Source: Phycisphaerae bacterium (GTDB taxonomy: Bacteria > Planctomycetota > Phycisphaerae > SM23-33). Taken from it: 64,000 nucleotides of DNA. The notes below the pieces were generated by a model. That model saw only the letters and a program-made list of their open reading frames with translations. It made no database searches and was not told where the DNA came from. Position numbers and translations under genes: made by a program. Position 1 is the first letter of the stretch; the number at the start of each line of letters is the position of its first letter. Positions 4,231 to 59,933 of the stretch are shown piece by piece. The stretch is taken from contig JAIORC010000188.1 in assembly GCA_021108335.1 (NCBI GenBank), positions 10,240-74,239 on the forward strand, given 5' to 3'.

Positions 4231-4277
4231 TTTTTCGTGTATTCCCAGTACCAGTTTCCTGGTTCCTGTTTTAACCC

Positions 4278-12830: not shown

Positions 12831-13206
12831 GGTGGCACAGGTTTGCAACCTGTGCCGTGGTGGCCTGGGAAGGCCACCACGCGAAAGGGTTTATGCAATT
12901 TCCCACGATGTAGGGTGGCATGGTCAGCGGCGATAGCCGATGGCCATGAAAGATAGATACACGATGGCGGATGGTATGTTGGGTGGTTTTGAGAAAAGGA
13001 TGGCGTAGAAATTGTGAATCGATCTTTCATGGCTACCCCGCAAAAAACGCGGGGTTTCCATGCCACCCGATATCGTGGGAAATTGCCCGGTGCCATGCTT
13101 CTGCTTGCAGAAGCATGCGGTCCCAGAAAAAATCCTGGGTGGCATGGCGACACCGCAGGGGTCGCCATGAAGAATCGTGCGGAAACCGCGTGGGTGCAAG
13201 CACCCA
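12831..13206. repeat. Cluster of at least six REP-like palindromic elements (BIME-like array) in the mnmA/yqaA-like intergenic region
   Basis: Hairpins ggcacaggtttgcaacctgtgcc, cgtggtggcctgggaaggccaccacg, ccccgcaaaaaacgcgggg, gcatgcttctgcttgcagaagcatgc, gggtggcatggcgacaccgcaggggtcgccatga and gggtgcaagcaccc. The ORFs called here are translation artefacts of the repeats. Confidence 0.65.
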
Positions 13207-29859: not shown

Positions 29860-32826
29860 GTGCGCAAATCATTCATAATTATTTCATGTGTTTTGACGAT
29901 ACTTGTCGGGAGTGTGGCATCGCTGCAGGCCGCCGGTATCGGAGAAACTCAAGCGAAATATCTGTGCATCAGCAAAACGGCCCATCCGCCGGTAATTGAC
30001 GGGAAGCTTGGCAAAGACGAATGGGCCGGCTGCGCCAAAATTCCCGGTTTTGTGCTGAAAAGCGGTATCTGCCCCCCGACGCAACAGACGGAAGTCTTTA
30101 TCACCTATGACGACAAGACTTTTTACTTTGCCGCGCGTTGCCTCGAATCGAGCATGGATAAAATCAGAACCAGGGTAAAGGAGCACAACGGGGCGGTTTA
30201 TAATGACGATAACATCGAGTTGTTTATTGACACGAATTATGACCGATACAGCTATCGGCAGTTCGTCCTGAATTCCATCGCCGTGCAGTGGAGTGACGAG
30301 CTATCGAAAAAGGGAACATGGCCCGCGGCTGCCCAGAGACACGCCGACCGCTGGGTCGTGGAAATGGCCATCCCCTTCGCCCAGCTTGGAATCACGCCGG
30401 AAAAGGGGTTTGTCTGCGGGCTTAACATCTGTCGTATCCGCTGGGGCAAGAAGCCGGAGTTGAGCTGCTGGTCGCCGACGTACGGTGGGTTTCATTCGCC
30501 GGGACGTTTCGGCTGCATGGTCTTTGGTTCTTTTAAGGATGTAGCGGTCCGCGAGGCCGACAAGCTCAGGGCGCAGCTTGACAAGATTACAGCGAAAGAT
30601 TCCGGCAATGCGGCAATGCTTGTAGAGATTAAAAAGCTGGAGGAATCGGTTAAACCGGATGAAAAATTCGACGTTGATCGATTCCGTTCGCTCCGCAAAT
30701 CGGCCGAGGCCATTGGTGAAAAAATAGTAGACCTTGGGTTGTCGGACTTGCGCGCGAAATTGACCGGCGCCGGCACGGTGGAAACGCAGCATCTGACTTC
30801 TGCCGCCTCACGGGGCAATTACAAGTTCCCGGAAAACTGGCGGAGCCGGAAGATTCTGGGGCAATATGATTTCCTGCACGATCTTTCGAACCACAAAATG
30901 CCCCTTTTCAAAAAGGCTGGACTCGCGGATGAACCTTTTATCAAGGACGCGCTCATGGGGGTCTATGTCCTGCACAATAAGATGTTCAAGAAGAAATTCT
31001 TCGATCCCAAATCCCCTATCCGAAAAGAGCTGAAAAAAACCGGCAGGCCGTTTTGCATAAACGCCCTGGTTGGTAATGCCCGAATCAGCGACATTCCGCC
31101 TTCCCTGTGCCGGCGATTCATCAAGGAATACGGCGACCAGTTTGTCGGTTTTATCGCGGACGAATGCTTTGGCCATGACGCCGATAAAAAATGGAGACAT
31201 CTGGGGGTAAGCAAGCCGAAAAACCGGAAAGACGCATTTATGGTTTTTGTAGCCTGTGCGCTGGATCGGCACACAAGGATTTTCCGCAACTGGGCCTTGA
31301 GCCATAACGAATTCCGCAACTGGGCGATTTGCACGATTTCAGATCCGCTTGACCATTTAGCGCTCGAAACTCATAACCTCGTGATGTCCGGCCATGAAAT
31401 CGGCGGCTATATGATGAGTACGCCTTTTGCGTTTGCTTGTTCCCGTGGAGCGGCAAGGCAATACGATAAGCCGTGGAGGACGTACTTGGCGGTGTGGGGG
31501 CCGGGCGTTGTCTGGGGATCTGTAACGGGCTATCAGTTTTTGTCGCCGCGTTGTCGCAGGGCGTTTGCCCGGCCGACGTGGGATACTGGCCCGTATTGCG
31601 GCACGTCGCTTTCACTTCAGAAGCGGCAGATTTTTGGTGCTTACATGTCGGGCACAAACATATTTCGCGACGAAAGCGATGCCGATGTAGGTTCGATCTA
31701 TGTCGCCAATTACGACCATCGGAAAATTCATGAGGTCGACGATCTGGTGATAGTGTTGCGGGACCGACCCTATGCCCTTTCACCGGCTGGTTCAATCCGC
31801 CAGGAACTCCATGATAACCTTGTAAAAAAGCATGACCGCGGCGCAACATACACGCCGGTGGCACTGATCTTCGACCGCTATCATGGGTACATGAATACGG
31901 AGAATATCAGTTATATTCTGGGCATGATTCCATACGCCGAAGCGGATTACATGATGCGGGCGGTTAACGATACGCTGTTCCCGTGGGAGCGTCGCATGGG
32001 CGAACGGAAGACGATGGTTACCGGGCCGTTCGGCGACATGTTTGATATTTTGACCAACAATGCTCCCGGCGAAGTTATTGACACGTACAAAGCGGCGATG
32101 CTTGTCGGGGATGTCGCTCTGGACGGGCAGTTCGTAAGCAAACTCATCAAGTACGTCAGAAACGGCGGAACGTTGATTATTAACGCCAAACAGATCAAAG
32201 GCAAACTGCCGGAGAAGTTCCAGGAAATGCTCGGCTGCAAGGTAACGGAAAAACGAGGCCGGGGCAAAATCGCGTTCAGTAATCTCGATAATTCGGTGAT
32301 ACCGGAGAAAAAGCCCTTCAACTTCCAGTACCTCCAGCCGACAACCGCGACGACTCTCGTTTCCCTGGTCGAGGGCGACAAGAAAACCGCTCCGCTGGTA
32401 CTGTCGAACAAATACGGCAAGGGCCGCGTGATTGTTACCGCGCCGGATTATCTTAAGGAAACCGGCAGCAAAACGCGGATGCTGAAATTGTTCAGCCATC
32501 TCATGCGGAATCTGAATTCCGAACTGCTGCCGGTGGCGGTGGAAGGAAATGTAGAGTATATTGTCAATCGCAATAAGAACGGCTGGGTGGTAACGCTCAT
32601 CAATAACGAAGGCGCGTACAAATATCCCGGCAAAAAGGAAGTCATCAAATCCAAGGAAAATGTCGACGCAAAAATTACTCTGAAGCGTAACGCCCTGGTG
32701 GAAGTCTCGAAAGTAAGCGAGTGGCTCACAGGTAAAGAGCTGAAACTCGCCAAAACCCCGCAAGGGACAAAAGTAATCCTCACCGTCCCAGCCGGTGACG
32801 TGCGGATTATCGAATTCGCGCAATGA
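29860..32826 (+). CDS. Giant secreted protein, family A paralog 1: CBM9/DOMON-like N-module - coiled coil - unassigned hydrolase-like central domain - GH42-middle-like domain - C-terminal beta-sandwich
   Basis: GTG start at stop+2 of the previous gene; signal peptide; CBM9-like hallmark PPVIDGKLGKDEW...LFIDTNYD...WVVEMAIPF; GH42M-like YKAAMLVGDVALDGQFVSKLIKYVRNGGTLIINAKQ; conserved C-terminal EGNVEYIVNRNKNGWVVTLINNEG...VPAGDVRIIEFAQ. Confidence 0.6.
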   Translation: MRKSFIIISCVLTILVGSVASLQAAGIGETQAKYLCISKTAHPPVIDGKLGKDEWAGCAKIPGFVLKSGICPPTQQTEVFITYDDKTFYFAARCLESSMDKIRTRVKEHNGAVYNDDNIELFIDTNYDRYSYRQFVLNSIAVQWSDELSKKGTWPAAAQRHADRWVVEMAIPFAQLGITPEKGFVCGLNICRIRWGKKPELSCWSPTYGGFHSPGRFGCMVFGSFKDVAVREADKLRAQLDKITAKDSGNAAMLVEIKKLEESVKPDEKFDVDRFRSLRKSAEAIGEKIVDLGLSDLRAKLTGAGTVETQHLTSAASRGNYKFPENWRSRKILGQYDFLHDLSNHKMPLFKKAGLADEPFIKDALMGVYVLHNKMFKKKFFDPKSPIRKELKKTGRPFCINALVGNARISDIPPSLCRRFIKEYGDQFVGFIADECFGHDADKKWRHLGVSKPKNRKDAFMVFVACALDRHTRIFRNWALSHNEFRNWAICTISDPLDHLALETHNLVMSGHEIGGYMMSTPFAFACSRGAARQYDKPWRTYLAVWGPGVVWGSVTGYQFLSPRCRRAFARPTWDTGPYCGTSLSLQKRQIFGAYMSGTNIFRDESDADVGSIYVANYDHRKIHEVDDLVIVLRDRPYALSPAGSIRQELHDNLVKKHDRGATYTPVALIFDRYHGYMNTENISYILGMIPYAEADYMMRAVNDTLFPWERRMGERKTMVTGPFGDMFDILTNNAPGEVIDTYKAAMLVGDVALDGQFVSKLIKYVRNGGTLIINAKQIKGKLPEKFQEMLGCKVTEKRGRGKIAFSNLDNSVIPEKKPFNFQYLQPTTATTLVSLVEGDKKTAPLVLSNKYGKGRVIVTAPDYLKETGSKTRMLKLFSHLMRNLNSELLPVAVEGNVEYIVNRNKNGWVVTLINNEGAYKYPGKKEVIKSKENVDAKITLKRNALVEVSKVSEWLTGKELKLAKTPQGTKVILTVPAGDVRIIEFAQ

Positions 32827-32873
32827 CAGTCAGTTGATCTGGATTATCCTCCACAGGGCAGGAGGAATTCCAC

Positions 32874-35816
32874 ATGCTGGGAAAGGTAAATCACGTGCGA
32901 GCGAGCTTTATCAATATATTATGTTTCCTGTTGCTCCTGGGCGGGAGCGTCGGAATGTTACAAGCCGATGAATCCCGGAAGCCGGTATTGTGCGCGAGCA
33001 GGACAGCCACTCCGCCGGTAATAGACGGCAAAATGAGCAAGGGGGAATGGCCGAAGAAAGCCGCGGCATCGGGTTTCAAATATCAGGGGATCGGCGCGGA
33101 AGCCAGGGAACCGACCGCCGTATTCGTTACGTACGATGACAAAAACCTTTATTTCTGCTTCCGGTGCTCCGAATCGAATGTTGGGCAAATTGTAGCCAGA
33201 CTCAAAAAACATGGCTCGGCTGTTTGGAGAGACGATTTCGTATCGGTGAATATTGACGCAACTCTTGGCAAGGCCGGCTTTTCGCAGTTTCTCACAAATT
33301 CAATCGGTACTCGATACGGCGCGCGCGGGAAGTGGCGGGCAGCGGCAAAGGTGCATCGCGGTTTCTGGTGCGCGGAGATCGCCATTGCCTTTTCCGCTCT
33401 CAGAATACCAGCCGAAGACGGTAGAGTTTGCGGCCTGGAGCTGTATCGCGGAAAACAAGGCGGATACCGGGAAAAAAGCTATTGGGCACCGGCACATGGA
33501 GACCCCCGCGTTCCCACACGGTATGGATACATGGTGTTGGGCTCGCTGCAATCTGCTGCCGTACGCCGTGCCGGAGTGTTGGAAACACGTTTGGCGAAAG
33601 CAGCGGGAGAAAAGGCCCGAAAGGCAATTTTATTGCGGAAGATCAAAAAGCTGAAAACCTTGCCCTGCCGGACAAAAAAAGATTTCATGGCGATGCGTAC
33701 CGTCGCCGCTGCGATTGAAAAGCAGATTGTACGGCTCGAAGAATCAGCGATTTGTAAAAAGGTTGCGCCTGTCGCAACAACGGGGAAAATTTTTCTGACT
33801 TCCGATGCAGCACGGAGCGGTTACGAGCTGCCGGAAAACTGGCGGCTGCGGAAAATTCTGGGTAGGGATTTTTGGCATGACATTTCATCCCGCAGAATGT
33901 CCCTGTTCAGGCGGGCGGGTTTTGTGGACGAACCGTTCATAAAGGATTCGCTCCTGACGATTCCCACCAGGGGCAACGCGATGTTTGAGCGGGTCTTCCT
34001 TGATCCCAAGTCCAAAACCCGAAAAATGCTGAAAGAAACCGGCAGGGCGTTTTGCATACCGTCGCCCCACGGCAGCTATGCTATTTCGCGTTCTTCGCGC
34101 CGAAAGTTTTTGGATGAGTTTGGCGGGCAGTTTGTCGGCTTCATTGCGGACGAATGCTACGGCCACAATTGCAGGGCAAGATGGAAGCAAATGAAGTTGC
34201 CTATGCCCAAAACCCGGCATGAAGCGTTTATGGGATTTGCCGCCCTGTTTCTGGAACGCCGAAGGGGAATTTTCCGTAATTGGGCGCTTTGTTACGTGGA
34301 TTTGCGGCCTTGGACGATATGCACGTTTTCCAGTCCCATGGACCACTATGTCCTTGAACTCGGGCCGATAAAAATGTCCGGCGCGGAGATTGGCGGACAC
34401 CCGAAATCTACAGCGATGATGTTTGCGTTCTCGCGAGGCGCTGCCCGTCAGTACGACAAGCCGTGGCGAATTTACCTGGCTCTCTATGGGATGGGTGTTA
34501 TTTCGGATTCGACAAATGGCTATCGCGTTCTGTCGCCGCGGTGCCGCAACGCGACCCGCAGGAAAAGGTGGGACACCGGGCCGAATAGCGGCACTTCGCT
34601 GTCGCTGCAAAAGAGGCAGATACTGGCTGCGTATATGTCCGGGATGAACCTGTTCCACGACGAAGGCGACAGCGATTGCGGCTCAGTTTATGTAGCCAAT
34701 TACGATTACCGCACAATCGACAGTGTAGACGACCTTGTGATAGTATTGCGGGACAAGCCTTACTGCCTGTCGCCGGCTGGTGTAATCCGCAAGGAATTCT
34801 ACGACAATATCGTCAAGAAGCATGACCGCGGCGCGATATACACGCCGGTGGCGTTGGTGTTCGACCGCTATCACGGATACATGCCCAAGCATTACCCCAA
34901 CCACGTTCAGGGCGCGATTCCGTACAAAGAAGCGGACTACATGATGCGGGCGGTCAACGAAGCGTTGTTCCCATGGGAAAGTCGCATGGGCGAGCGGCAG
35001 GCGATGGTTACCGGGCCTTTCGGCGACATGTTCGACGTGTTGACCAACAACACTCCGAGCGAAGTGCTGAGTACTTACGGGGCGGCGATGCTTGTCGGCA
35101 ATGTCGAGTTGGACGGATATTTCGTGCAACGGCTCGTCAAGTACGTCGAGAACGGCGGAACGCTGATTGTCAACGCCAGGCAGATCAAAGGCAAGCTGTC
35201 GAAAAAATTCCAGAAAATTCTCGGCTGCAAGGTAACGAAAAAGCGAGGCCGCGGCAAAATAGCATTCAGCAATCTCGACAATTCAGTGATACTGGAAAAA
35301 AAGCCCTTCAACTTCCAATACCTCCAGCCGACAACCGCGACGACCCTCGTTTCCCTGATCGAGGGCGACAAGAAAACCGCTCCGCTGGTGTTGTCAAACA
35401 AATACGGCAAAGGCCGCGTGATAGTTACCTCGCCGGATTATCTTAAGGAGCCCGGCAGCAAGACGCAGATGCTGAGATTATTCAGCCATCTCATGCGGCG
35501 GCTCAATTCCGAATTGTTGCCGGTGGCGGTGGAAGGGAACGTCGAGTATATCGTCAACCGCAACAAGAACGGCTGGGTGGTAACGCTTATCAATAACGAC
35601 GGCGTGTACAAATATCCCGGACAAAAGCCAATCGTCAAATCCGAGAAAAACGTCGCCGCGAAGGTTACGCTGAAACGTAACGCCGCGGCAAAAGTCTCGA
35701 AAGTCAGTGAGTGGCTCACCGGCAAAGAATTAAAATTCGCCGAAACCCCGCAAGGCACGAAAGTAACCCTCACCGTCCCAGCCGGCAAGGTGCGGATTAT
35801 CGAATTCGAGTTATAA
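32874..35816 (+). CDS. Family A paralog 2 (CBM9-like - central domain - GH42M-like - beta-sandwich)
   Basis: Homologous to 29860-32826 throughout; RBS aggagg. Confidence 0.6.
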   Translation: MLGKVNHVRASFINILCFLLLLGGSVGMLQADESRKPVLCASRTATPPVIDGKMSKGEWPKKAAASGFKYQGIGAEAREPTAVFVTYDDKNLYFCFRCSESNVGQIVARLKKHGSAVWRDDFVSVNIDATLGKAGFSQFLTNSIGTRYGARGKWRAAAKVHRGFWCAEIAIAFSALRIPAEDGRVCGLELYRGKQGGYREKSYWAPAHGDPRVPTRYGYMVLGSLQSAAVRRAGVLETRLAKAAGEKARKAILLRKIKKLKTLPCRTKKDFMAMRTVAAAIEKQIVRLEESAICKKVAPVATTGKIFLTSDAARSGYELPENWRLRKILGRDFWHDISSRRMSLFRRAGFVDEPFIKDSLLTIPTRGNAMFERVFLDPKSKTRKMLKETGRAFCIPSPHGSYAISRSSRRKFLDEFGGQFVGFIADECYGHNCRARWKQMKLPMPKTRHEAFMGFAALFLERRRGIFRNWALCYVDLRPWTICTFSSPMDHYVLELGPIKMSGAEIGGHPKSTAMMFAFSRGAARQYDKPWRIYLALYGMGVISDSTNGYRVLSPRCRNATRRKRWDTGPNSGTSLSLQKRQILAAYMSGMNLFHDEGDSDCGSVYVANYDYRTIDSVDDLVIVLRDKPYCLSPAGVIRKEFYDNIVKKHDRGAIYTPVALVFDRYHGYMPKHYPNHVQGAIPYKEADYMMRAVNEALFPWESRMGERQAMVTGPFGDMFDVLTNNTPSEVLSTYGAAMLVGNVELDGYFVQRLVKYVENGGTLIVNARQIKGKLSKKFQKILGCKVTKKRGRGKIAFSNLDNSVILEKKPFNFQYLQPTTATTLVSLIEGDKKTAPLVLSNKYGKGRVIVTSPDYLKEPGSKTQMLRLFSHLMRRLNSELLPVAVEGNVEYIVNRNKNGWVVTLINNDGVYKYPGQKPIVKSEKNVAAKVTLKRNAAAKVSKVSEWLTGKELKFAETPQGTKVTLTVPAGKVRIIEFEL

Positions 35817-35961
35817 CAGGTAGTTGATCCAAATATTTTTGGGACAGGTATTTGCATTGTCGGCCAGGTTTGGATTGGCATTTATGTGGATTGAGTAACC
35901 GCTGATGCCCGGCTGTGGTAGAACTATGGTTGAATTGAATTAAGAGAAAGTGGAGTCGAGC

Positions 35962-38520
35962 ATGAAATTTTCAAAATCATGTGTGGTGTTGACGTTGGCT
36001 TTCGCGGCTGCGTGTGCGCAGGCGGATCCGAACGTAATTCTTGAGGATGATTTCTCGGGGACGAAGATCAATTCTGCCAAGTGGAAGCTCTACGTTCCGA
36101 AGGGGACAGGCGGTTTCATCAGAATTGAAGACGGCGTACTGCATGTTTTGTCATGTGACAGATCGGCATTTTTCACTACGAAAAAAGAGATTCCGTCAGG
36201 ACATATCCTGGAGTTCGACTACTTTCAGCCTTCGAAAGAGCGAAAGGGCAGCTACCAGAATCATGTGTTGTATAGTGCGACCAGAGACGCAAAGGGGCGG
36301 AAGTGTCGCAACACCGTGTGGTACGTTGAGCAATCCGGGTGTTTGTTCAGTCATCACAACGGCCTGCGAGACAAGCGGGGAGCGATTGGGAATTTTCCTC
36401 CATCGCGTGATAAGTGGTATCGGGTTCGAGTATTGAACCAGGCCCGGAGCACTACGATTATTGTACGCGACCGGAAGACCGGCAAGCTTTGCAGCCGGGC
36501 CACTTTTTCCCACGATCCGGTGTCGTCGGGTCGAATACAGTTTGTTGGGGGGGCATACAACAAAGGCAGCCGCCTGGGCTTCAAGCTCGACAATGTGCGA
36601 ATTCTCAGCAAAACGCCCGTTCTCGGCAAAGCCCCGACGCCGCTGGTACCGCCGGGAAATTTCGAGACGCCGGCGAACTGGAAGCCGCTCGATATCGCAG
36701 GAAGGAATTTCTGGCATTTGGCTTACTATAAGCCCCATGCGTGGAAGCTTTGGGGAATGAGCAAGCATCCGCTGTTTGCCGAAGCGGCGTGGCTGCACGC
36801 TCCGACCGACGAAAAAGCGATCAGCGCCACGCCTCGGCCTTTTACGATGAGGCCGGCAAGAACGAAGGCCGGTCGCGAGCGGCAGGTGAAAATTGTAAAG
36901 GCCGCCGGAGATAAGTTCCTCGGATTTTATCCGCCGATGAATGAGTGGGGCGATGTCTACCTTCGCCGCGGCCGGCTTGGCAAAGCGACCAGCCGCGATG
37001 ACGGACTTGCACGAATTAAGCGGATGTATATCAAACGTGCGGATACGGCGCCGGTCAAACGCGCGACCTTTTCGCTTATGAATTACCGGCTTTTCCATCA
37101 TCACGCCCTCGAGTGGGGATCACGCTCGGTGACAGCCGAAATCGGCGAAACCGTTCCGTGTACCAACCTTCAGATTGCATGTACGCGCGGTGCGGCGCGC
37201 GAGTACGGCCGCCCGTGGGGCATCGATCTTTCCTCGTGGCTTTACGGAAAGATGACCCATTACGTGTACACGCCTGACTTCATATCCAGCCCGTGCTCGT
37301 TGTACAGCGGTCATTCCGTATCGCTCCACAAAAGATTCTGCTACGCCTCCTGGCTGGCTGGCGCTAACTATATCTGGTACGAGAACGAAGCTGTGCTGGC
37401 GATGAATGAAAACGACATCCGCCAGGTGATCGGTTGCCAGCCGGACAAGAAATACGATCGCTGGGTGCTCTCGCCGGTTGGCGAGATAGCGCAGAAGCTC
37501 TTTGCTCTCGCGAAAATCAAAGATCGCGGAACCCCTTACACGCCGGTGGCGTTGATGATCGATTTCGCCCATGGCTGGTCGCCGCTGGGCTGTACGCCGC
37601 ACAAGATATGGGCCAATCTGCCGCTGGCCAAGGGCGACCACATGCTCGACGAGTTCTTCAATACGATTTACCCGTGGAACCCGGCCCGCGACTATAGCGA
37701 GCCTGGCGCGCGCAAGCCAGGCAGGAACGGCGAGCAGGGCTTCCTGACGCCAACTCCCTATGGCGATATCTTCGACGTGTTCACGAACAAGTCATGCCGC
37801 ACCCTGGCTGGCTATCGCGTATTGATGATGGTGGGCGACGTGCGGATCGACAAGGCCCTGGCGGCAAAACTTATAGCATACGTCAAAAATGGCGGCACAC
37901 TCGTTATCAACGCGAAGCAGCTCGGGGCGCATTTGCCGGCGAAGTTCCTCGGCGCTAAGCTGACGGGGCAAAGCGGCACGGCGAAGTCGGCTTTGTGCAA
38001 GCTCGACGGCAAAAAGCTTGCCGGGGCGGCATTCAGCTACGCCAAGGTGGAATTGACAACCGCCAAGCCGCTCGTTACAGCCGATGGCGGCAAAGACGCG
38101 CTGGCTTGCATTAACGAGGTCGGCAAGGGCAGAGTAGTTCTCACGACACCGCCTTATCTTCTCAACAAGAAGAATCGTGCGGTGCCCATGTTGAAGCACC
38201 TGTTGAAACATCTCACCAGCGGCCTGCTGCCGGTTCGCGTCAGCGAAGGCGACGGCCTGGAGTATACGGTCAACCGCACCGCCAAGGGCTGGGTTGTGGG
38301 GCTTATTAACAATAAGGGTATTTACAAGCAGCCGACCGGCCCGCCGACAATCAGGCCCGAAGAGGAAATAGCAGTAATGGTGCGTCTGGATGGTGTGGCG
38401 ACGAAGGCTACCGAATGGATCACCGGCAAGAAGCTGAAAATGAAAACCACGAAAAAAAGTACAACCGTCAGGCTGGTCGTCCCAGCCGGCGACGTACGAA
38501 TTATTGAATTGGAGAAATAA
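35962..38520 (+). CDS. Family B paralog 1: ConA/LamG-like N-module fused to the same central domain - GH42M-like - beta-sandwich core
   Basis: Signal peptide. N-module ILEDDFSGTKINSAKWKLYVP... is a jelly-roll lectin/glucanase-like fold. The central RGAAREYGRPWGIDLS and SGHSVSLHKRFCYASWLAGANYIWYE align with family A RGAARQYDKPWRTYLA and CGTSLSLQKRQIFGAYMSGTNIFRDE. C-terminus ...VPAGDVRIIELEK. Confidence 0.6.
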   Translation: MKFSKSCVVLTLAFAAACAQADPNVILEDDFSGTKINSAKWKLYVPKGTGGFIRIEDGVLHVLSCDRSAFFTTKKEIPSGHILEFDYFQPSKERKGSYQNHVLYSATRDAKGRKCRNTVWYVEQSGCLFSHHNGLRDKRGAIGNFPPSRDKWYRVRVLNQARSTTIIVRDRKTGKLCSRATFSHDPVSSGRIQFVGGAYNKGSRLGFKLDNVRILSKTPVLGKAPTPLVPPGNFETPANWKPLDIAGRNFWHLAYYKPHAWKLWGMSKHPLFAEAAWLHAPTDEKAISATPRPFTMRPARTKAGRERQVKIVKAAGDKFLGFYPPMNEWGDVYLRRGRLGKATSRDDGLARIKRMYIKRADTAPVKRATFSLMNYRLFHHHALEWGSRSVTAEIGETVPCTNLQIACTRGAAREYGRPWGIDLSSWLYGKMTHYVYTPDFISSPCSLYSGHSVSLHKRFCYASWLAGANYIWYENEAVLAMNENDIRQVIGCQPDKKYDRWVLSPVGEIAQKLFALAKIKDRGTPYTPVALMIDFAHGWSPLGCTPHKIWANLPLAKGDHMLDEFFNTIYPWNPARDYSEPGARKPGRNGEQGFLTPTPYGDIFDVFTNKSCRTLAGYRVLMMVGDVRIDKALAAKLIAYVKNGGTLVINAKQLGAHLPAKFLGAKLTGQSGTAKSALCKLDGKKLAGAAFSYAKVELTTAKPLVTADGGKDALACINEVGKGRVVLTTPPYLLNKKNRAVPMLKHLLKHLTSGLLPVRVSEGDGLEYTVNRTAKGWVVGLINNKGIYKQPTGPPTIRPEEEIAVMVRLDGVATKATEWITGKKLKMKTTKKSTTVRLVVPAGDVRIIELEK

Positions 38521-38521
38521 C

Positions 38522-41080
38522 ATGCGTGCAACACTCAAAATTACTTTATGCCTGTTTTTACTGATGGCCTTCTGCGCGAAGTCCCTGGCTTCGCCCAAGG
38601 TAATTCTCGAGGACGATTTCTCGGGAACGAAGATCAATTCTCGCAAGTGGACGGTACGCGTTCCCAAGACGAAGGGCAGTTTCGCCAAAATTGAAAACGG
38701 CGTGCTGCATGTTCTTGCCTGCGACAAAGAGGCATCGATAGCTACGCGGCCGGCAATACCGGCTGCTCACATATTGGAGTTTGATTACCTGCAGCCGTCG
38801 ACAGAGATGCGTGGCGGCTACCAGAACAACATATCGTTTCAGACGATAAAAAGGCAACCGGGGCGGTGGGGTGGCGTGTTATGGTATATCGAGAGATCCG
38901 GCGTTACATACAGTCTGTGCGGCGGAATGTGGGGCAGGAAGGAAACACTTGGCAAGAAATTCCCGGTGATAAACAACAAGTGGTATCGGGTTCAGATATA
39001 CAATTTCATGGGAAGCACCATGATTGTTCTGCGCGATAAGGCTACAGGCAAGATCGAAAGCAAAACTGTTTTTCAACATGATCCCTCGTCGGATGGGCGC
39101 ATATTTTTCAAGGCGGCATCGACCAGAAAAGGAAGTCGCTGGGGATTCAAACTCGATAACGTGCGGATTACTTCAGGAGGTGGGACTCTCGATAAAGCAC
39201 CTGCCGCGCTGTTGCCTGCGCAAAAGCCGCGAGTCGGTAAAAGCTGGCAGCCCATGATGCTTGCAGGCAGGAGTTTCTGGCATCTCGCCTACTACAATCC
39301 TGTTCAATGGAAGGCCTGGGGCATGAGCGACCTGCCGCTTTTCGCGGAATCGGCATGGATGGCTGCGCCGCAGGATGCGGAGCTGCTTGGCCAGGGTAAG
39401 AGACCTTACACGCTGAAACCCAGAGGCAAAAACGCCGCAAGCATCGCGAAAAACGCCGGCAACGAGTTTTTGGGCTTCTATCCGACTCTGAATGAATGGG
39501 GCGATGTTCTTCTCAGGTCTGGGCCATGGAAAAAAATGAAGATCAAATCCAGGTACGAGGGGGTTGCGGCGCTGGAACAAATGTACAAAAAGAGAGCCGC
39601 GTCCGCACCGGTAAGCAAGGATATTTTTTCGTGGGTAGGCTACAAGCCTTTCAATCATCAGGCATGTGAGTGGGGCGCGCGAGCGCTGATCGTCGAAACC
39701 GGAGAAACGATCCCCTGCACCAATCTCCAGATTGCATTCATACGTGGAGCGGCAAGGGAATACGGCAAACCCTGGGGCGTGGATATTTCCGCATGGTTGT
39801 TCGGCGCCATGACCAACTACGTTCCGGTACAGGATTTCGTCACGGCACGCTCTGGCCCGTTTTCCGGTCATTCGGTATCTTTTCATAAGAGGATGTCGTA
39901 TGTGTCCTGGCTCACCGGGGCAAACTACCTCCTGTACGAAGAGCGCAGGGCTTTGGCAGTCAACGAAAACGATGTACGCCAGGTATATGGATACGCCCGC
40001 GACAAGGCCCACGACCGCTGGATACTTTCGCCGATCGGCGACGTGGCAAGCAAGCTGTTCAAACTTGCCGCAGTGAAAGATCGAGGCACACCTTACACGC
40101 CGGTAGCCGTCATGGTCGATTTCGCCCACGGCTGGTCGCCGGTAGGCTGTTCGGCGCACAAGATATGGGCAAAGCTTCCCTATACCAGTGGCGACCAGAT
40201 GATAAATGAGTTCTTTAACACGATCTTTCCCTGGAACCCCGACCGCAACTACAGCGTGCAAGGTGCTCGAAAGCCGGGGCGCACCGAGCAGGGATTCCTC
40301 ACGTCAACTCCCTACGGCGACATCTTCGACGTGTTCACGAACAAGTCATACCGCACGATAGACGAATATCGTGTATTGATGATGGTGGGTGATGTGCGGA
40401 TCGACAAAGCCCTGGCGGCGAAGCTTATGGAGTACGTCAAAAGTGGCGGGGCGCTGGTTATCAACGCGAAGCAACTCGGGGCACATCTGCCGGCGGAGTT
40501 TGTCGGTGCTAAGCTGACGGGGCAAAGCGGCACAGCCAAGGCTGCCCTGTGCAAACTTGACGGCAAGAAGCTCGCCGGCTCGGCATTCAGCTACGCCAAG
40601 GTGGAATTGACAACCGCCAAGCCGATTATTACAGCCGATGGTAGCGGCGACGTGCTGGCCTGCATTAACGAGGTCGGCAAGGGCAGAGTTGTTCTCACGA
40701 CGCCACCTTATTTTCTCGACAAGAAGAACCGTGTACTGCCCATGCTAGGGCATCTGTTGAAACACCTCACCAGCGGCCTGCTGCCGGTGCGCGTCAGCAA
40801 GGGTGTGGAGTATACGGTCAACCGCACGCAGGACGGCTGGGTTGTGGGACTGATCAACAACAAGGGCATCTACAAATCGCCGACCGGTCCGCCGAAAATC
40901 AAGCCCGAAGAAGAAATAGCCGTAATGGTGCGTCTCGACGGTGTTGCAACGCAGGCTACCGAATGGCTCACCGGCAAGAAGCTGAAAATGAAAACCATGA
41001 AAAATACCACAACGGTTACGCTTTCCGTCCCAGTCGGCGACGTTCGGATTGTTGAGTTCCGTACCCGACAGGAAGATTAA
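38522..41080 (+). CDS. Family B paralog 2
   Basis: About 65% identical to 35962-38520 throughout, with RBS ggagaaataac ATG. The 38504 ORF start is a TTG artefact upstream. Confidence 0.6.
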   Translation: MRATLKITLCLFLLMAFCAKSLASPKVILEDDFSGTKINSRKWTVRVPKTKGSFAKIENGVLHVLACDKEASIATRPAIPAAHILEFDYLQPSTEMRGGYQNNISFQTIKRQPGRWGGVLWYIERSGVTYSLCGGMWGRKETLGKKFPVINNKWYRVQIYNFMGSTMIVLRDKATGKIESKTVFQHDPSSDGRIFFKAASTRKGSRWGFKLDNVRITSGGGTLDKAPAALLPAQKPRVGKSWQPMMLAGRSFWHLAYYNPVQWKAWGMSDLPLFAESAWMAAPQDAELLGQGKRPYTLKPRGKNAASIAKNAGNEFLGFYPTLNEWGDVLLRSGPWKKMKIKSRYEGVAALEQMYKKRAASAPVSKDIFSWVGYKPFNHQACEWGARALIVETGETIPCTNLQIAFIRGAAREYGKPWGVDISAWLFGAMTNYVPVQDFVTARSGPFSGHSVSFHKRMSYVSWLTGANYLLYEERRALAVNENDVRQVYGYARDKAHDRWILSPIGDVASKLFKLAAVKDRGTPYTPVAVMVDFAHGWSPVGCSAHKIWAKLPYTSGDQMINEFFNTIFPWNPDRNYSVQGARKPGRTEQGFLTSTPYGDIFDVFTNKSYRTIDEYRVLMMVGDVRIDKALAAKLMEYVKSGGALVINAKQLGAHLPAEFVGAKLTGQSGTAKAALCKLDGKKLAGSAFSYAKVELTTAKPIITADGSGDVLACINEVGKGRVVLTTPPYFLDKKNRVLPMLGHLLKHLTSGLLPVRVSKGVEYTVNRTQDGWVVGLINNKGIYKSPTGPPKIKPEEEIAVMVRLDGVATQATEWLTGKKLKMKTMKNTTTVTLSVPVGDVRIVEFRTRQED

Positions 41081-41082
41081 TA

Positions 41083-41243
41083 CCGGGCGCACAAAATTAG
41101 TGCGATCGCGAGTAAAATGTCTAATGACTAAAAAAACACGCTGGGTGGCATGGCGACACCGCAGGGGTCGCCATGAGGGATGGCGTAGGAATTGCGTGGT
41201 GGCCTTGTTACCTCGTCTGGCGCACTAACTTTGTGCGCCCGGT
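41083..41243. repeat. MITE-like element: REP-like hairpin flanked by 23-bp inverted repeats
   Basis: accgggcgcacaaaattagtgcg at 41083-41105 versus cgcactaactttgtgcgcccggt at 41221-41243 (22/23 complementary). Inside lies gggtggcatggcgacaccgcaggggtcgccatga (41144-41177), identical to the copy at 13135-13170. Confidence 0.5.
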
Positions 41244-41323
41244 ATAATAGCATGCGGCAGAGTAGACACGCTGCCGACAGGAAAGGGCAAATTGTTTTGT
41301 GCATCCTAAAAAAGGTGAATTTA

Positions 41324-44263
41324 ATGCGCTGGAAATTATTGGTTTTGACGGGCTTTATGGCGATGTTTTTCGTTGGCGCCTCGGTTGCGGACGCCGCGGA
41401 GGACAAGCCGGTTTTGTGCATACGCAAAACGCCCCGCCCGCCGGTAATTGACGGGAAGCTGGACAAGGGCGAATGGGCCGGCCGCGGCGAAATTCCCCTG
41501 GTTCGCCTGCACAGCGGAAAGGGTAACGCGTCGCAGCCGGCCAAGGCTTTTGTTACTTATGACGATAAGAACCTGTATTTCGGCGTGCGTTGCGCCGAGT
41601 CGAACATCGGCAAAATAAAAGCCAATGTCAAGGAGCACAACGGCGATATCTGGTATGACGACGATATTGAAGTATTTATCGATACGAATCACGATAAGAT
41701 CAGCTATCACCAATATGCCGTCAATTCCATCGGCACGCAGTGGGACCGCGATTCGTCGAAAAAGGGAGCCTGGAAAGCGGCGGCGAAGGTGTATGCCGAT
41801 CACTGGGTCGTGGAGATAGCCATACCTTTTACCGTACTCGGGATAACGCCGGACGACGGTCTGGTTTGTGGATTTAATCTCACCCGTACGCGGCCTGGTA
41901 AGCCGACTGAGGTAAGCACCTGGTCTCCCCAGAAAGGGTCGATTCACGCCCCGGCGCGCTTCGGCTATCTGGTTTTCGGTACTCTCAAGGCTGCCGCCGA
42001 CCGTAAGGGGAAGCTGCTCCGGGCACAGTTGGACGCGCTGACTGGGGAGACAACCGCAAAGGCCGCTTTGCTTAAGCAGGTTAAAGCGATGGAGAATTTG
42101 GTTCGGAAGGGCGAGAGTTTCAAAGTGGCCCGATATCAGGCTATTCGCAAATCGGCGGCGGCGATTGAAAAGAAGATTGAGGCACTGGCGCGAGCGGAGC
42201 TGGTCGCGAAATTAACTGCCGGAGATACGGGAAAGAAACACCTTCTGACTTCCGCCGCTGCGCGAAGCGGTTATGACGTGCCGGGCAACTGGCGGATGCG
42301 AAAAATTCTGGGCAAGGAATTCTGGCATGATATTTCATATCACAGGATGCCAATGTTCAAGCAGGCAGGCCTCGCGGACGAGCCGTTTATAAAAAACGCG
42401 ATGCCGGCGATTCGCACCCGGGGCAGTGCAACTTTCGAGCGTGTTTTTTTTGATCCCAAATCCGCGACTCGAAAAATGCTGAAAAGTACCGGCAAGCCGT
42501 TTTGCGTAGCATCTGCCGGCGGCAGCTTCGCCCTCGGCCTTGAGCCTTCGGTATGCCGCAGATTCATCAAGGAGTACGGCAAGCAGTTCGCCGGTTTCGT
42601 TGCGGACGAATGCTTCGGGCATGATGCCCGGAAAAAATGGCCTCGCATGAATCTCCCCATGCCGAAAACCCGGCACGAAGCGTTTCTGGGATTTGCCGCG
42701 CAATTTCTGGAGCGCCGGAGGGTGGCTTTCCACAATTGGGCGCTTTGCTACGTGGAATTCCGGCCTTGGGCGATATGCACGTTCTCCACACCCCTCGATC
42801 ATTATGCGCTCGAACTCGGCCCGATCAAGATGGCCGGCACGGAAATCGGTGGGCATATGAAAAGCATGGCCATGATTTTTGCTTTCTCGCGGGGAGCCTC
42901 GCGTCAATACGATAAGCCCTGGCGGATGTATCTCGCCGTCTTTGGGCCGGGTGTTATCTCGGATTCGACACAGGGCTATCGCGTTCTGTCGCCGCGGTGC
43001 CGCAACGCGGCCCCCACCTCTTTCTGGGATACCGGGCCGAATAGCGGCACTTCTTTGTCGCTGCAAAAACGGCAGATACTGTCTGCGTATATGTCCGGGA
43101 TGAATATGTTCCACGACGAGGGCGACAGCGATTGCGGTTCGCTTTACGTCGCCAATTACGACTATCGGAAAATTGACAGCGTCGACGACCTTGTGATCGT
43201 ATTGCGGGACACGCCGCATTGCCTGTCGCCGGCGGGAGCAATCCGCAAGGAGTTCCATGACAATATTGTCAATACGCGCGACCGCGGCGTAATTTATACG
43301 CCGGTAGCCCTGATTTTCGACCGCTTTCACGGATACATGCCCAAGCACTATCAGGATCGGATTCTGGGAGTGATTCCGTACAAAGAGGCTGACTACATGA
43401 TGCGGGCGGTCAATCAGACGCTGTTTCCGTGGGAGCATCGCTCCGGCGAGCAGCAGGCGATGGTTACCGGCCCGTTCGGCGACATGTTCGACGTTTTGAC
43501 CAACAACGCTGAGAGCGAAGTGCTGAGTACTTACGGGGCGGCGATGCTTGTCGGCAATGTCGAGATGAACGGGTATTTCGTGCAAAGGCTCATCAAGTAC
43601 GTCGAGAACGGCGGAACGCTGATTATCAACGCCAGGCAGATCAACGGTAGATTGCCGGAAAAATTTCTCGGCTGCAAAGTAACGAAAAAACGAGGCCGGG
43701 GCAAAATAGCGTTCAGTAACCTTGATAAGTCGGTAATCGTCGAACGCAAGCCCTTCAACTTCCAATACCTCAAGCCGACAACCGCGACGACGCTTGTTTC
43801 TCTGGTCGAGGGCAACAAGAAAACCGTGCCGTTGGTGTTGTCGAACAAGTACGGCAAAGGCAGAGTGATCGTTACCGCGCCGGATTATCTTAAGGAATCC
43901 GGCAGCAAAACGCAGATGCTGAAATTGTTCAGCCATCTCATGCGGCGGCTCAACTCCGAATTGCTGCCGGTGGCGGTGGAAGGAAATGTTGAGTATATCG
44001 TCAATCGCAACAAGAGCGGCTGGGTGGTAACGCTCATCAATAACGAAGGTGTGTACAAACCACCTGGCCAAAAACCAATCGTCAAATCCGAGGAAAACGT
44101 GGTCGCGAAAGTTATTCTGAAGCGTAACGCCGCGGCGAAAGTCTCGAAAGTCAGCGAGTGGCTCACCGGCAAAGAGCTGAAACTCGCCGAAACCCCGCAG
44201 GGCATGGAAGTAACCCTCACCGTCCCAGCCGGCGATGTGCGGATTATCGAATTCGCACAATGA
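41324..44263 (+). CDS. Family A paralog 3
   Basis: True start MRWKLLVLTGFMAMFFVGASVADA, in frame with the longer 41192 ORF. CBM9-like PPVIDGKLDKGEW and a C-terminus ending IIEFAQ. Confidence 0.6.
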   Translation: MRWKLLVLTGFMAMFFVGASVADAAEDKPVLCIRKTPRPPVIDGKLDKGEWAGRGEIPLVRLHSGKGNASQPAKAFVTYDDKNLYFGVRCAESNIGKIKANVKEHNGDIWYDDDIEVFIDTNHDKISYHQYAVNSIGTQWDRDSSKKGAWKAAAKVYADHWVVEIAIPFTVLGITPDDGLVCGFNLTRTRPGKPTEVSTWSPQKGSIHAPARFGYLVFGTLKAAADRKGKLLRAQLDALTGETTAKAALLKQVKAMENLVRKGESFKVARYQAIRKSAAAIEKKIEALARAELVAKLTAGDTGKKHLLTSAAARSGYDVPGNWRMRKILGKEFWHDISYHRMPMFKQAGLADEPFIKNAMPAIRTRGSATFERVFFDPKSATRKMLKSTGKPFCVASAGGSFALGLEPSVCRRFIKEYGKQFAGFVADECFGHDARKKWPRMNLPMPKTRHEAFLGFAAQFLERRRVAFHNWALCYVEFRPWAICTFSTPLDHYALELGPIKMAGTEIGGHMKSMAMIFAFSRGASRQYDKPWRMYLAVFGPGVISDSTQGYRVLSPRCRNAAPTSFWDTGPNSGTSLSLQKRQILSAYMSGMNMFHDEGDSDCGSLYVANYDYRKIDSVDDLVIVLRDTPHCLSPAGAIRKEFHDNIVNTRDRGVIYTPVALIFDRFHGYMPKHYQDRILGVIPYKEADYMMRAVNQTLFPWEHRSGEQQAMVTGPFGDMFDVLTNNAESEVLSTYGAAMLVGNVEMNGYFVQRLIKYVENGGTLIINARQINGRLPEKFLGCKVTKKRGRGKIAFSNLDKSVIVERKPFNFQYLKPTTATTLVSLVEGNKKTVPLVLSNKYGKGRVIVTAPDYLKESGSKTQMLKLFSHLMRRLNSELLPVAVEGNVEYIVNRNKSGWVVTLINNEGVYKPPGQKPIVKSEENVVAKVILKRNAAAKVSKVSEWLTGKELKLAETPQGMEVTLTVPAGDVRIIEFAQ

Positions 44264-44311
44264 CAATCAGTTGATCTGGATATCCTTCCAGGGCAGGAGG
44301 AATTCAACACA

Positions 44312-47300
44312 TTGGGAAAGGTAAATCACGTGCGAGCGAGCTTTATCAATATATTATGGTTCCTGTTGTTCCTGGGTGGGAACGTTGGGCTATTGCAGGC
44401 TCGCGAATCGGTCTGCCTCAACGGCGTGTGGCGGTGTCAGGAGGCTAAAGATAATAAGGCGCCCTCTGGCGACTGGCATTACATAAGGGTCCCGCACCGG
44501 CTTCGCTTGGGCGTGTTCGATATAACCGATTCCGGGGGCAGGGTCATACCGGGCAGCGACGAGTTACAGAAAAACGCCGTCCGTTTCTGGTTTCAGAGAG
44601 ACGTGGTCGTTCCGAAAAAATGGATTGGCAAGAAAATTTTTCTCCGTTTCGGCTCGGTCGGTGTCTACGCCAAAGTGTTGGTGAACGGCAAGGTCGCCGG
44701 CGAGCATTACGGCGAAAGCACGAGTTTTAAGTTCGATATTACGAATCTCGTAACGCCGGGCAAGAAATGCGTTATCTCCGTTCTGGCTCTAAACCGCAAA
44801 GCCGTCGGCAAGACCGTTCCCGGCGGTGGTTCCGGCGGATACGCGGGGATTCGCGAAGATGTATTTCTCGATGCCTTGCCGCAGACCCGCGTCGAAAACC
44901 TGCATATCATCACGTCATTCCGAGAGAAAACAATCAAGGTGAAAACCTGGGTGCGAAACGACGGGGACAAACGCAAAAAAATAACGCTCACAGCTTTTGT
45001 ACTTAAAGACGGGAAGGAAGTTAAAAAGCTTCCTGCCCAAGAGTTCTGGTTGAAGCCGGGGCAAAGCAGGGAAATCGAGACGATACAGAAATGGATCGCC
45101 CCCCGGCTGTGGACGCATGAAACCCCTCATCTTTACAATCTCCGAACGGAGTTGCGTTCCGGCGGCGAAGTCGTCGATACGCTGACGACGCGATTCGGGT
45201 TTCGCGAGTTCTGGGTGGAAAAGGATTCGTTTTATCTGAATGGCGCCAAGGTACATCTCCTGGGCGAGGGAACGCTGGGCCCTTCCCGTCATTTTCTGAC
45301 TCCGGAGACTACCAGGGCATGGGTAAGGCTGCTCAAGGACAGCAATCATAATTGCGTTCGTTTCCACACCGGCCCAGCCCAGCCGTGGGTCTGGGACATC
45401 TGCGACGAGGAAGGGATACTCGCGGTTTCCCAATCGTCATTTTTTCAATTAAGCCGCAACGATGTCAACCCCCCGGAATTCTGGAAAAACATGAAGACCG
45501 AAATCGATGAGTGGATACCGGCCGATCGCAATCACCCCAGCATAATCATGTGGAATGCGGATAACGAAATCCACCACCTGAAATATTCGCTCCGGCTGAA
45601 AAAGATGATCAATAAATATGACGCCACCAGGCCGATCCAATACGGCGGCGACTCCGCGTACAAGACGTCCATGCCGCATTGTCTCGGTAACAAGGACTAT
45701 TATGACAGCCCGGAAGTGGAGGTGTTGAGTACGTATTTTTATGCCTGCTACGGCTATGCCGCCGGTGGAGAGGGACAAAGCTACGGATTCCAGGACCTGC
45801 TCAAGCGTGAGAAATGGCCGCCGGTGTGGCAGAAACTGACGGACAAACCCATCGTAATCGACGAGTTCAGCTATCCGTACGATTTTTGCGACGTGAAAAT
45901 GCTGCGAAACAAAGACCGCAAAGGCCACGTCGCGTGGCTCATCGGCGACGAAGCATACCTGGAAGCGGGCGACTATGACGCAAGGGGGCTTAATGTCAAG
46001 GCGATCAGTTTTGGTGACAGCGCGGTCAAGTCGCGAGTCTATTCGCCCACCTACATAAAAGCCAGGTCGCTGATTGGGGAGGATCTGCTTTCTGCCTGGC
46101 GGTGCTATGACTTTGCCGGCATCGTGGAGTTTGAAAGCTTCTGCCTGACCGCAAATGCCTGGTACGACTTCAGCGCGATCAAACTGAACTACACTCCCGA
46201 AGAGCTTGCCTTGCCAGGCATGAGGCCGAAGTGCCCCGCGGCTTTTTTTCGTGGCGACTCGTTTCTTAACACCTGCAAACCGGAGCTGCCGCCGTACCGG
46301 CCAAACAAACTCTTTCACACCGTAAAAAAAGCCTTCGCGCCAATATTCCTCTATCTCGGCGGCGATATGGAAATAGCGAATAAGAGGCATGTCTGGTTCG
46401 CGGGCGACGATATGAGGAAAACGCTTTGCCTGATCAACGACCGCCTCGATAAGAAAGTTTTCAGGCTTTATCTCGGTTTCGAGGATTCCTCCGGCAAAGT
46501 TTACCAGACGATAAATAAAACGCTTACGCTGCTTCCCGGCGAAGTGAAAAGGCAAAAGGTAAAATTCAACATTCCAGATTTCGCGGCAAAAACAAAATGC
46601 CGGGTCAAAATAATCGCTGTGTCCGACGGCGAGGAATATAAAAGGGATTTTGCGGTTACCGTATTCCCCAAACCGGGCTGTTTGAAAACAGTTTGCAAAA
46701 TAGGCGTCCGCGGTGACAGCCTCGCGGGGTTGCTTGGCAAGAGGATGGCGGGGATCGTTCCGGTGAAGACCATGGCCGAAATCGAGCAATGCGACATTGT
46801 CTTCTGCGACAGTGCCGACTGGCTGGAACGGGAAGCCGAAAAGGCGGAGAAGTTCATGCGTAAAGGAGGAATGATAGTTTGCCTCTGTCGCGAATCCGTC
46901 GCCGGTGTGGAGGTGGATAGGTTCACGGTGAAGAATCTTTTTCCGCGTGCGAAAGGCCATCCGCTTTTAGGCGGCATCGACGCCGACGACCTCGCGAGAA
47001 TGGAAATAACCGCCCTGCCGATGTGGGCAAAGCCCGAGCGGGGTGCTTTCCGCCCCATTATCGACGGCGGTTACAGGCTGGACTACGCGTCGATGCTCGA
47101 GTTTGTCATTGGCAAGGGCAGGCTTGTCTGCCTTTCCCTGCCGGTCCGGGAGTACGGTGCAGAGCCGATCATTACCACGCTGGTCGACAATTGCGTCCGC
47201 TACCGTGACAGCCTTGTTGCCAAATTATTACCGGCGGCTTATATGGGCGGCGCCGAAGGCGCGGCGTTTCTCGCGGGGCTGGGCCTGACGCTTCCGAAAG

Positions 47301-48652: not shown

Positions 48653-48775
48653 AGGAAATTTCGAGTATATAGTCAACCGCAATAAGAGCGGCTGGGTGGT
48701 AACGATCGTCAACAACGAAGACGCGCTACCGGTTGAAAAGGACAAACTTTTTTACACAAACGAAAAGAGGAAAAT
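48653..48775 (+). pseudogene. Relic of the 3' end of a family A paralog (gene fragment, about 40 codons)
   Basis: Immediately after the GH2 stop the sequence translates EGNFEYIVNRNKSGWVVTIVNNEDALPVEKDKLFYTNEKRKI*. This matches the conserved C-terminal EGNVEYIVNRNKNGWVVTLINNEG of family A but lacks everything upstream. Confidence 0.6.
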
Positions 48776-48778
48776 CTA

Positions 48779-59895: not shown

Positions 59896-59933
59896 CCAGT
59901 GCCGTGCTTCTGCAAGCAGAAGCACGGCACTGG
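59896..59933. terminator. Perfect 18-bp-stem REP-like hairpin between convergent genes, candidate bidirectional terminator
   Basis: ccagtgccgtgcttctgc-aa-gcagaagcacggcactgg followed by gcatttttt on the + strand. Same family as the 13094-13119 hairpin. Confidence 0.5.

Follow-up and report, generated by a model that had tools for sequence, protein, structure and literature searches.

Conserved 5′ cassettes, consisting of an upstream region, a ribosome-binding site and a signal peptide or lipoprotein signal peptide, precede differing mature parts in the vlp/vsp genes of Mycoplasma and in paralog families of Borrelia. These cassettes are maintained by recombination within the gene family, and they carry demonstrated promoters or phase-variable elements that serve antigenic variation. 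Export signals are also acquired through module shuffling, wherein illegitimate recombination fuses a heterologous mature enzyme in frame behind an existing signal peptide and places the breakpoint at the boundary between peptide and mature protein. In the lpl lipoprotein-like cluster of Staphylococcus aureus, the evolutionary unit among tandem paralogs spans the junction between genes (Tsuru & Kobayashi 2008, Mol Biol Evol 25:2457, PMC2568036). Here we describe a 140-nucleotide repeat that is found at two gene junctions in a 64,000-nucleotide stretch of DNA (hereafter the window) from the metagenome-assembled genome (MAG) of a Phycisphaerae bacterium (NCBI contig JAIORC010000188.1, 89,895 nt; locus tags K8S55_08215-08260).

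Both copies lie in a run of co-oriented genes that includes five tandem paralogs, here termed family A (A1 to A5). One copy joins A1 to A2, and the other joins A3 to the gene for a non-homologous enzyme of glycoside hydrolase family 2 (GH2). Our favored explanation, to which we assign a probability of about 0.7, is that the repeat forms the boundary between units in a tandem array of secreted family-A proteins, and that GH2 replaced one family-A body while keeping its signal peptide.

The lpl cluster is the closest precedent, and the unit is of the same kind. As in that cluster, the array consists of tandem, co-oriented paralogs of predicted exported proteins, five of them in this case. Likewise, the 3′ region of one gene, the intergenic segment and the 5′ region of the next open reading frame (ORF) are conserved jointly, here at A1→A2 and A3→GH2, and a conserved stretch inside the ORFs corresponds to the recombination site. 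The two ends of an ORF also have incongruent relationships, as exemplified by the peptides of A1 and A5, by the closeness of A2 and A3 in their 3′ parts, and by a related contig (L004) that combines one type of signal peptide with an A4-like body. In all, four of the five features of the lpl model recur at this locus. However, the recombination zone occupies the 3′-terminal ∼700 nt here and is central in lpl, the evidence comes from one genome and one related contig rather than from more than 10 strains, and the proteins are glycoside hydrolases of a Phycisphaerae MAG. Also unlike lpl, one copy of the unit feeds a gene that is not a paralog, GH2, yielding a chimeric ORF. The locus differs from the Mycoplasma and Borrelia cassettes in that no promoter or switch is evident, two recent copies and one old copy are present, and the setting is a polysaccharide-degradation operon. 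In contrast to module shuffling in general, both flanks of the donor gene survive (the signal peptide on the 5′ side and a relic on the 3′ side), and the slot is still recognisable.

Two copies of a gene junction

Global alignment of positions 32827-32966 with 44264-44401 gives 121 identical columns out of 140 (86.4%). An earlier note on this DNA, made by reading the letters alone, had pointed out the similarity of these blocks, which is real, but had ended them at 32963 and 44400 rather than at 32966 and 44401. The genes upstream of both copies have the same C-terminus, ...RIIEFAQ*. In copy 1, the stop codon of A1 is followed by a 47-nt spacer, termed J (32827-32873, + strand), with an SD-like (Shine-Dalgarno-like) AGGAGGA at 32860-32866, and then by the start of A2 and its signal peptide (32874-32966, + strand; ATG at 32874, a conserved GTG at 32895, and ...GMLQA ending at 32966). 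In copy 2, spacer J (44264-44311, + strand; AGGAGGA at 44295-44301) carries two 1-nt deletions relative to copy 1 and leads into the start of the GH2 ORF and its signal peptide (44312-44401, + strand; TTG at 44312, GTG at 44330, and ...GLLQA ending at 44401).

From stop codon to ATG, 42 of the 47 spacer positions are identical (89.4%), and this non-coding segment holds the only two indels of the block, each of 1 nt. The 24 signal-peptide codons that begin with GTG (32895-32966 and 44330-44401) align without gaps, with 61 identities in 72 positions (84.7%); the codon changes comprise six that are synonymous and four that are conservative (C/W, L/F, S/N and M/L). The longest exact match spans 46 nt (32878-32923 and 44313-44358). 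Immediately past the block, identity falls to ∼42% over the 33 columns from 32964 and stays at ∼40-55% further downstream, which is the level of unrelated sequence. The drop follows immediately on ...LQA, where the signal peptide is predicted to end. The earlier note had asked whether the similarity might be confined to coding sequence. It is not, and since the spacer is included, the two junctions share DNA ancestry rather than having converged on similar signal peptides.

Divergence within the block is uneven, amounting to 9% up to signal-peptide codon 15 and to 33% in codons 16-24 (p=0.003); the signal peptide itself is 96% identical over codons 1-15 and 67% identical over codons 16-24. This pattern suggests a recent conversion patch that covers an older shared signal peptide. 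A degenerate 31-nt pattern of the signal-peptide core matches three times in the window, at the starts of A1, A2 and GH2, with 0 matches expected from shuffles, and it has no match among the genome contigs or the metagenome contigs.

The translation starts differ between copies. The ATG of copy 1 (ATG CTG) is absent in copy 2 (ACA TTG), which is at odds with the earlier note's description of two proteins that both begin MLGK, and the downstream GTG is common to both. The conserved AGGAGGA precedes the copy-1 ATG by 8 nt and the copy-2 TTG by 11 nt, distances that fit an intercistronic ribosome-binding site. The predicted start codon of GH2 must be either TTG 44312, as in the NCBI annotation, or GTG 44330. 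NCBI annotates A2 as a protein of 953 amino acids from a Met codon at 32955 (within ...GMLQA), dropping a signal peptide whose coding is conserved in A1, A2, GH2 and contig L004. The true start of A2 is probably ATG 32874 or GTG 32895.

The repeat has no left edge near 32810, where the earlier note had placed one. Self-BLAST aligns A1 (29860-32826, + strand; GTG start at 29860) with A3 (41324-44263, + strand), the 3′ end of which forms the upstream half of copy 2, over 3 kb (29963-32953 versus 41415-44388). The alignment runs through the whole of both genes and ends abruptly, and the 140-nt repeat is simply its downstream terminus, not a ∼145-nt unit copied in front of two genes. Identity between A1 and A3 is ∼60-70% over most of this length and rises to 84-92% in the final ∼700 nt. 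The 3′ tract of A1 at 32240-32826 (+ strand), with 84-92% identity to A3, is also similar to A2, A4 and A5, and we refer to it as the homogenised zone. Indeed, each of the ten paralog pairs shows a lower proportion of synonymous differences (pS) over the last ∼250 codons, 0.25-0.4 compared with 0.6-0.8 elsewhere. Nearest neighbours also shift along the gene, with A1 and A5 pairing over codons 40-560, A2 and A3 over codons 400-760, and A1 with A4 and A3 with A5 near the end; A2 is closest to A3 in the 3′ two-thirds only. Falling pS combined with changing neighbours is a sequence signature of concerted evolution and mosaic recombination, and the homogenised zone would supply the homology for such recombination. 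An origin by recombination between tandem paralogs, as had been proposed in the earlier note, is therefore borne out by the paralog alignments and the homogenised 3′ ends.

When the 3′ flanks of all five family-A genes are compared, the alignment continues through the spacer into the next gene for A1 and A3 only. The flank of A2 retains the first ∼13 nt of J (CAGGTAGTTGATC, 35817-35829, + strand), and the flanks of A4 and A5 retain none. J evidently once followed A2 too, and the simplest reading is that it is a former inter-unit spacer of the tandem array. All genes between 26647 and 59841 point the same way and are separated by short gaps, and J is therefore most likely intercistronic.

The sequence of these junctions is the same in a second assembly. 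A contig of an independent ENA assembly (NODE_61; 88,360 nt, 28x coverage, with other contig ends) matches the window exactly at copies 1 and 2 and at the relic described below. Between the NCBI and ENA assemblies there are 15 differences in 24,341 positions, all in paralogous parts of A3 and A5; relative to L003, the differing stretches are 43814-43864, 53895-53938 and 54883-54990. At the differing A5 positions the window allele equals A1 in 10 of 10 cases, and at the A3 positions the ENA allele equals other paralogs in 3-4 of 5 cases. These differences reflect either a polymorphism generated by paralog exchange or a mixing of consensus sequences, and they leave the junctions untouched.

Signal-peptide types and the GH2 gene

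The predicted signal peptides fall into two types. Type 1 (VR.SFI.I.C.L..L.GSV..LQA) is found in A1, A2 and GH2, while A3, A4 and A5 carry type 2 (MHGKVLILTGFM...). The type-1 peptide of A1, MRKSFIIISCVLTILVGSVASLQA, is encoded by an older, diverged copy at 29860-29931 and aligns with the GTG-initiated part of the A2 and GH2 peptides. A1 must start at GTG 29860, since an in-frame stop codon lies 9 nt upstream. The peptides have K/R residues followed by a 12-residue hydrophobic core with a mean Kyte-Doolittle hydropathy of 2.3-3.2. The c-region (..SVGMLQA or ..NVGLLQA) places A at -1 and a non-canonical L at -3, with SVG| and SVA| as alternative sites. Type 1 is a putative Sec-type signal peptide that would direct export and be cleaved.

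Signal peptide and body do not always share a history. A1 and A5 are 88% identical from ∼16 nt past the signal peptide to the stop codon, yet their signal peptides are unrelated, and they represent a second discordance of this kind besides GH2. A3 and A4 have a 60-nt upstream region in common; that of A4 (48719-48778, + strand), a type-2 5′ module, is homologous to 41264-41323 upstream of A3. A contig from a low-abundance relative in the same sample (L004; ENA ERZ26872896 NODE_12059, 1-3136, coverage 2.3) contains, in this order, the last part of the same CBM4_9 gene as is found before A1, a gap of 1 nt, an ATG in place of the GTG of A1, the type-1-like peptide MQKNIIIILCLFSVAVLGSRNLFA and a body that is closest to A4 (79% at the nucleotide level). 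The 1-nt gap at this junction is the same as in the window. The ORF of L004 is interrupted at ∼1640-1900, and low-coverage errors are the probable cause. Because A1 and L004 both carry type-1 peptides, type 1 must be counted as a native feature of family A, and GH2 as its recipient. By eye, J also seemed plausibly homologous to the CBM4_9 gene before A1 at its 3′ end, but their local alignment is no better than those of shuffles (p ∼0.1-0.45), and the part that they have in common is only AAGGTAAA, which precedes GTG.

The GH2 body (44402-48639, + strand) consists of GH2_N, Glyco_hydro_2, a TIM barrel, a long C-terminal extension and a CBM9 domain, and it has no DNA-level homology to family A. 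Its native N-terminus, RESVCLNG, starts at 44402 with the codon right after ...LQA. Two GH2 homologues (P0009 and P0010) have signal peptides of their own, followed by SRED/SREE..LNG.W, which matches the RESVCLNGVW found past the breakpoint, and two others (P0008 and P0012) have no signal peptide. The conserved opening of the domain across homologues is (S)RE..(C/S/G)LNG.W. The breakpoint is thus placed, by comparison with these homologues, at the predicted boundary between signal peptide and mature protein of both parents.

A relic of a family-A gene lies at the other end of GH2. The segment 48640-48720 (+ strand) is an ungapped 81-nt match to the C-terminal region of A1 and A3, identical to each at 69 of 81 positions (85%), with a blastn E value of ∼1e-20 for the 87-nt match to A1. 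It corresponds to the family-A stretch that ends ∼215 nt before the stop codon, and it is followed by the upstream region of A4, which abuts it. The relic is read by GH2 in another frame than that of family A; it spans the GH2 stop codon (TGA, 48650-48652) and supplies both this codon and the last GH2 codons. Translated in the family-A frame, it carries six replacements at residues conserved in A1-A5, four of which are strictly invariant there, indicating relaxed constraint of the kind expected in a decaying fragment. Since a family-A 5′ end and a family-A 3′ fragment flank GH2 in the right order and orientation, GH2 resides inside the remains of a family-A unit.

Together, the relic and the A4 upstream region encode a 45-amino-acid ORF (48642-48779, + strand), the ATG of which lies inside the 3′ end of GH2, while its TAA overlaps the ATG of A4 (TAATG). 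The sequence ATGGTGGCTGA spans the GH2 stop. The ORF is called as a gene in the ENA record and is probably K8S55_08245. Most likely it is a pseudogene fragment, and it is conceivable that it couples translation of GH2 to that of A4.

No direct or inverted repeats were found at 44402 or 48639 beyond short, scattered chance repeats, nor were terminal inverted repeats, a target-site duplication or attC-like ends found to bound the GH2 segment. A discontinuity in GC content or skew, which would be a signature of horizontal transfer, is also lacking at GH2, where GC content (0.53-0.56) is the same as in the flanks. With no repeats at its ends and a composition like that of its surroundings, the segment was more plausibly introduced by illegitimate recombination than by a mobile element.

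The nearest homologue of GH2 (P0002) is 54% identical, is truncated at its N-terminus and ends at the equivalent of residue 1137. Its 5′ end (contig L001) is adaptor-like junk and uninformative on a native signal peptide. Given where this homologue ends, the part of GH2 encoded by 47723-48639 (residues ∼1138-1442), comprising a linker of ∼100 amino acids and the C-terminal CBM9, is an addition specific to this lineage. The same CBM9 subtype occurs as an appendage of many unrelated enzymes (PQQ, metallophosphatase and GH123 proteins). That the GH2 CBM9 was taken from the disrupted family-A gene is unlikely: it scores 147 bits on the family-A CBM9 profile, compared with 150-180 bits for CBM9 domains in unrelated proteins of other organisms. 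It is 37-40% identical to the family-A CBM9 domains, among which A2 is 42-46% identical to the others, and the order of signal peptide, CBM9 and C-terminus is collinear.

Origin of the GH2 boundary

Our favored history can be outlined as follows. The unit boundary would comprise a gene end, an intercistronic spacer of ∼47 nt with an SD sequence, and the start codon and Sec-type type-1 signal peptide of the next gene. Through recombination and gene conversion, the 3′ ∼700 nt of the paralogs would be kept alike and the linked spacer and signal-peptide segment carried along, by which means the boundaries A1→A2 and A3→next gene would stay ∼86-91% identical. After A3, a family-A body would then have been replaced in frame by a GH2-CBM9 segment lacking a signal peptide and a stop codon of its own. 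The replacement would begin right past the signal peptide, and an 81-nt out-of-frame piece of the old C-terminal region would be left over, now providing the last codons and stop codon of GH2. The sequence itself shows the homology map, the breakpoints, the relic, the homogenised 3′ ends and the family-A origin of type 1, while the order and number of these events we infer.

Several observations weigh against this history. No close relative was found that has either an intact family-A gene between A3 and A4 or a GH2 orthologue with a signal peptide of its own, and for that reason the replacement is deduced from a single genome. At least three illegitimate junctions are required (signal peptide to GH2, CBM9 to relic, and relic to A4 upstream region). 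The age of the block is non-uniform, given that its last nine signal-peptide codons are 33% diverged as opposed to 9% elsewhere (p=0.003), and a recent patch over an older shared peptide must accordingly be postulated. Export, the cleavage site and the start codon are predictions. Moreover, the sequence is that of a MAG in which assembly differences cluster in paralogous stretches, and some mixing of consensus between paralogs is possible.

An alternative is that gene conversion proceeded from one side, with a tract from a family-A 3′ end (donor A1-J-A2) running on across the spacer and overwriting the native 5′ end of a GH2 gene long resident between A3 and A4, up to the signal-peptide boundary, and with the relic being an unrelated leftover of the duplication from which A4 arose. 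Homogenised 3′ ends in all paralogs would be in keeping with such a process, as would the patchy assembly differences that match paralogs and suggest ongoing exchange. Identity is also highest beside the A gene and decays in the signal peptide from 96% to 67%, like a tract running out of homology. However, conversion as a rule requires homologous sequence on either side, which is lacking 3′ of the signal peptide. Even the diverged last nine codons still encode a type-1 c-region (GGNVGLLQA versus GGSVGMLQA), implying an older shared peptide, and the collinear family-A fragments on both flanks of GH2 would have to be a coincidence. On balance, we consider this history improbable.

Poorer still are the prospects of the interpretation given in the earlier note, namely that the block is a discrete ∼145-nt cassette of promoter, ribosome-binding site and signal peptide, duplicated to positions before two unrelated genes, where it would act as a regulatory element common to both. 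The block does hold an SD sequence, AGGAGGA, and a signal peptide, its non-coding spacer is 89% conserved, and the 46-nt exact run covers the translation start. The promoter component fared less well. A lone, weak sigma-70-like match (ATGACA-16-TATCCT, 9/12) is present in copy 1, but a 1-nt deletion in copy 2 reduces the spacing to 15 nt, outside the allowed 16-18, and the match is not called there. Matches of this kind are near chance level, with 20 in the region against 12.8 +/- 3.3 in shuffles (barely enriched); the scan used the sigma-70 consensus with 16-18 nt spacing, and promoter types of Planctomycetota lie outside its coverage. Also, no terminator was found ahead of the junction block, Rfam gave no match at gathering score (two sub-threshold eukaryotic matches represent chance), and no RNA fold is significant or conserved, as an anti-SD hairpin in copy 1 (z = -1.3) is not kept in copy 2.

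Spacer divergence (5/47, 10.6%) is not significantly below that at third codon positions in the adjacent 360 coding nt (22/120, 18%; p=0.12). In favor of the cassette, for J combined with the first 15 signal-peptide codons, 10 of 113 columns differ, and this segment is less diverged than neighbouring third positions at 18% (p=0.002, computed as 9/110 with an earlier block end). Nevertheless, a discrete cassette is difficult to reconcile with homology that continues through the entire upstream genes, with the lack of direct or inverted repeats bounding either the block or the GH2 segment, and with a relic that reveals the former presence of a whole family-A unit. In our reading, the junction block would supply the ribosome-binding site, start codon and export signal of GH2 and would not act as a promoter.

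A more speculative proposal, which we rate marginally lower again, is that J and the type-1 segment constitute a reusable export adaptor that is grafted repeatedly onto heterologous enzymes in tandem arrays of carbohydrate-active enzymes. Selection, rather than recent conversion, would then preserve the invariant 46-nt core around the start codon, which might for instance serve A2 and GH2 as a common site of translational control, and the 45-amino-acid ORF may couple translation of GH2 and A4.

Finally, an assembly artefact, in which the 46-nt exact repeat led the assembler to link GH2 with a family-A 5′ end, is very improbable: even though the sequence comes from a MAG, its paralogs have exact runs of up to 46 nt in common and all 15 assembly differences lie inside paralogous stretches, a chimeric join is argued against by the private variants of copy 2 on both sides of that run (two indels and substitutions upstream, 11 substitutions downstream), by the exact agreement of two differently bounded assemblies at both junctions and the relic, and by the intact reading frame over the join.

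The family-A enzymes and their setting

The array belongs to a polysaccharide-degradation operon. Co-oriented genes on the + strand, separated by short gaps, extend from 26647 to 59841 in the order GH31, CBM4_9 protein, A1, A2, B1, B2, A3, GH2, A4, CBM9 protein, A5 and two unknown genes. The five family-A genes, all on the + strand, start at 29860 (A1), 32874 (A2), 41324 (A3), 48779 (A4) and 53632 (A5), and their proteins are 60-85% identical to one another. At the edges of the window, the two outermost ORFs have no record with exactly the same product, and the third matches only a 1.9-kb contig that falls within the window.

Family-A proteins comprise an N-terminal CBM9, a helical linker, a GH42/GH35-like TIM barrel, a trimerisation-like domain and a beta-sandwich, and neither Pfam nor NCBIfam has a family for their body. 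A3, modelled with AlphaFold (pLDDT, the model's confidence score, 87.6), has its best Foldseek matches among GH42 beta-galactosidases, GH35-type exo-glucosaminidases and an Ignavibacterium beta-1,2-glucosyltransferase (E 1e-19 to 1e-14), and its N-terminal domain has a CBM9 structural match. By this model, family A is a putative glycosidase distantly similar to GH42 and GH35 enzymes. Searching 1.8 billion proteins with a profile returned 478 relatives at E<=1e-30, and family A is therefore not unique to this genome. Family B (B1 and B2; 35950-41080) corresponds to the family-A body without CBM9. Families A (29860-56595) and B may represent an unclassified glycoside hydrolase family.

GC-rich hairpin repeats that resemble REP (repetitive extragenic palindromic) elements or terminators are present in intergenic regions of the window (CTGGGTGGCATGG...CCATG and GCATGCTTCTGC-TTGC-GCAGAAGCATGC; 13093-13171, 41141-41176, 4197-4233, 62917-62953 and 59900-59930). 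One such repeat is inside the 243-nt spacer between B2 and A3.

The locus is an ordinary recombination mosaic and calls for no new mechanism and no new regulatory element. For annotation, the consequences are that the NCBI start of A2 removes a signal peptide conserved in three genes, and that the 45-amino-acid "gene" is most likely a pseudogene fragment. More generally, the array provides a clean natural example of tandem paralogs that evolve by units straddling gene boundaries. In our favored explanation, it also illustrates how a non-homologous enzyme, GH2, would come by both its ribosome-binding site and its signal for export through in-frame placement in the slot of a paralog.

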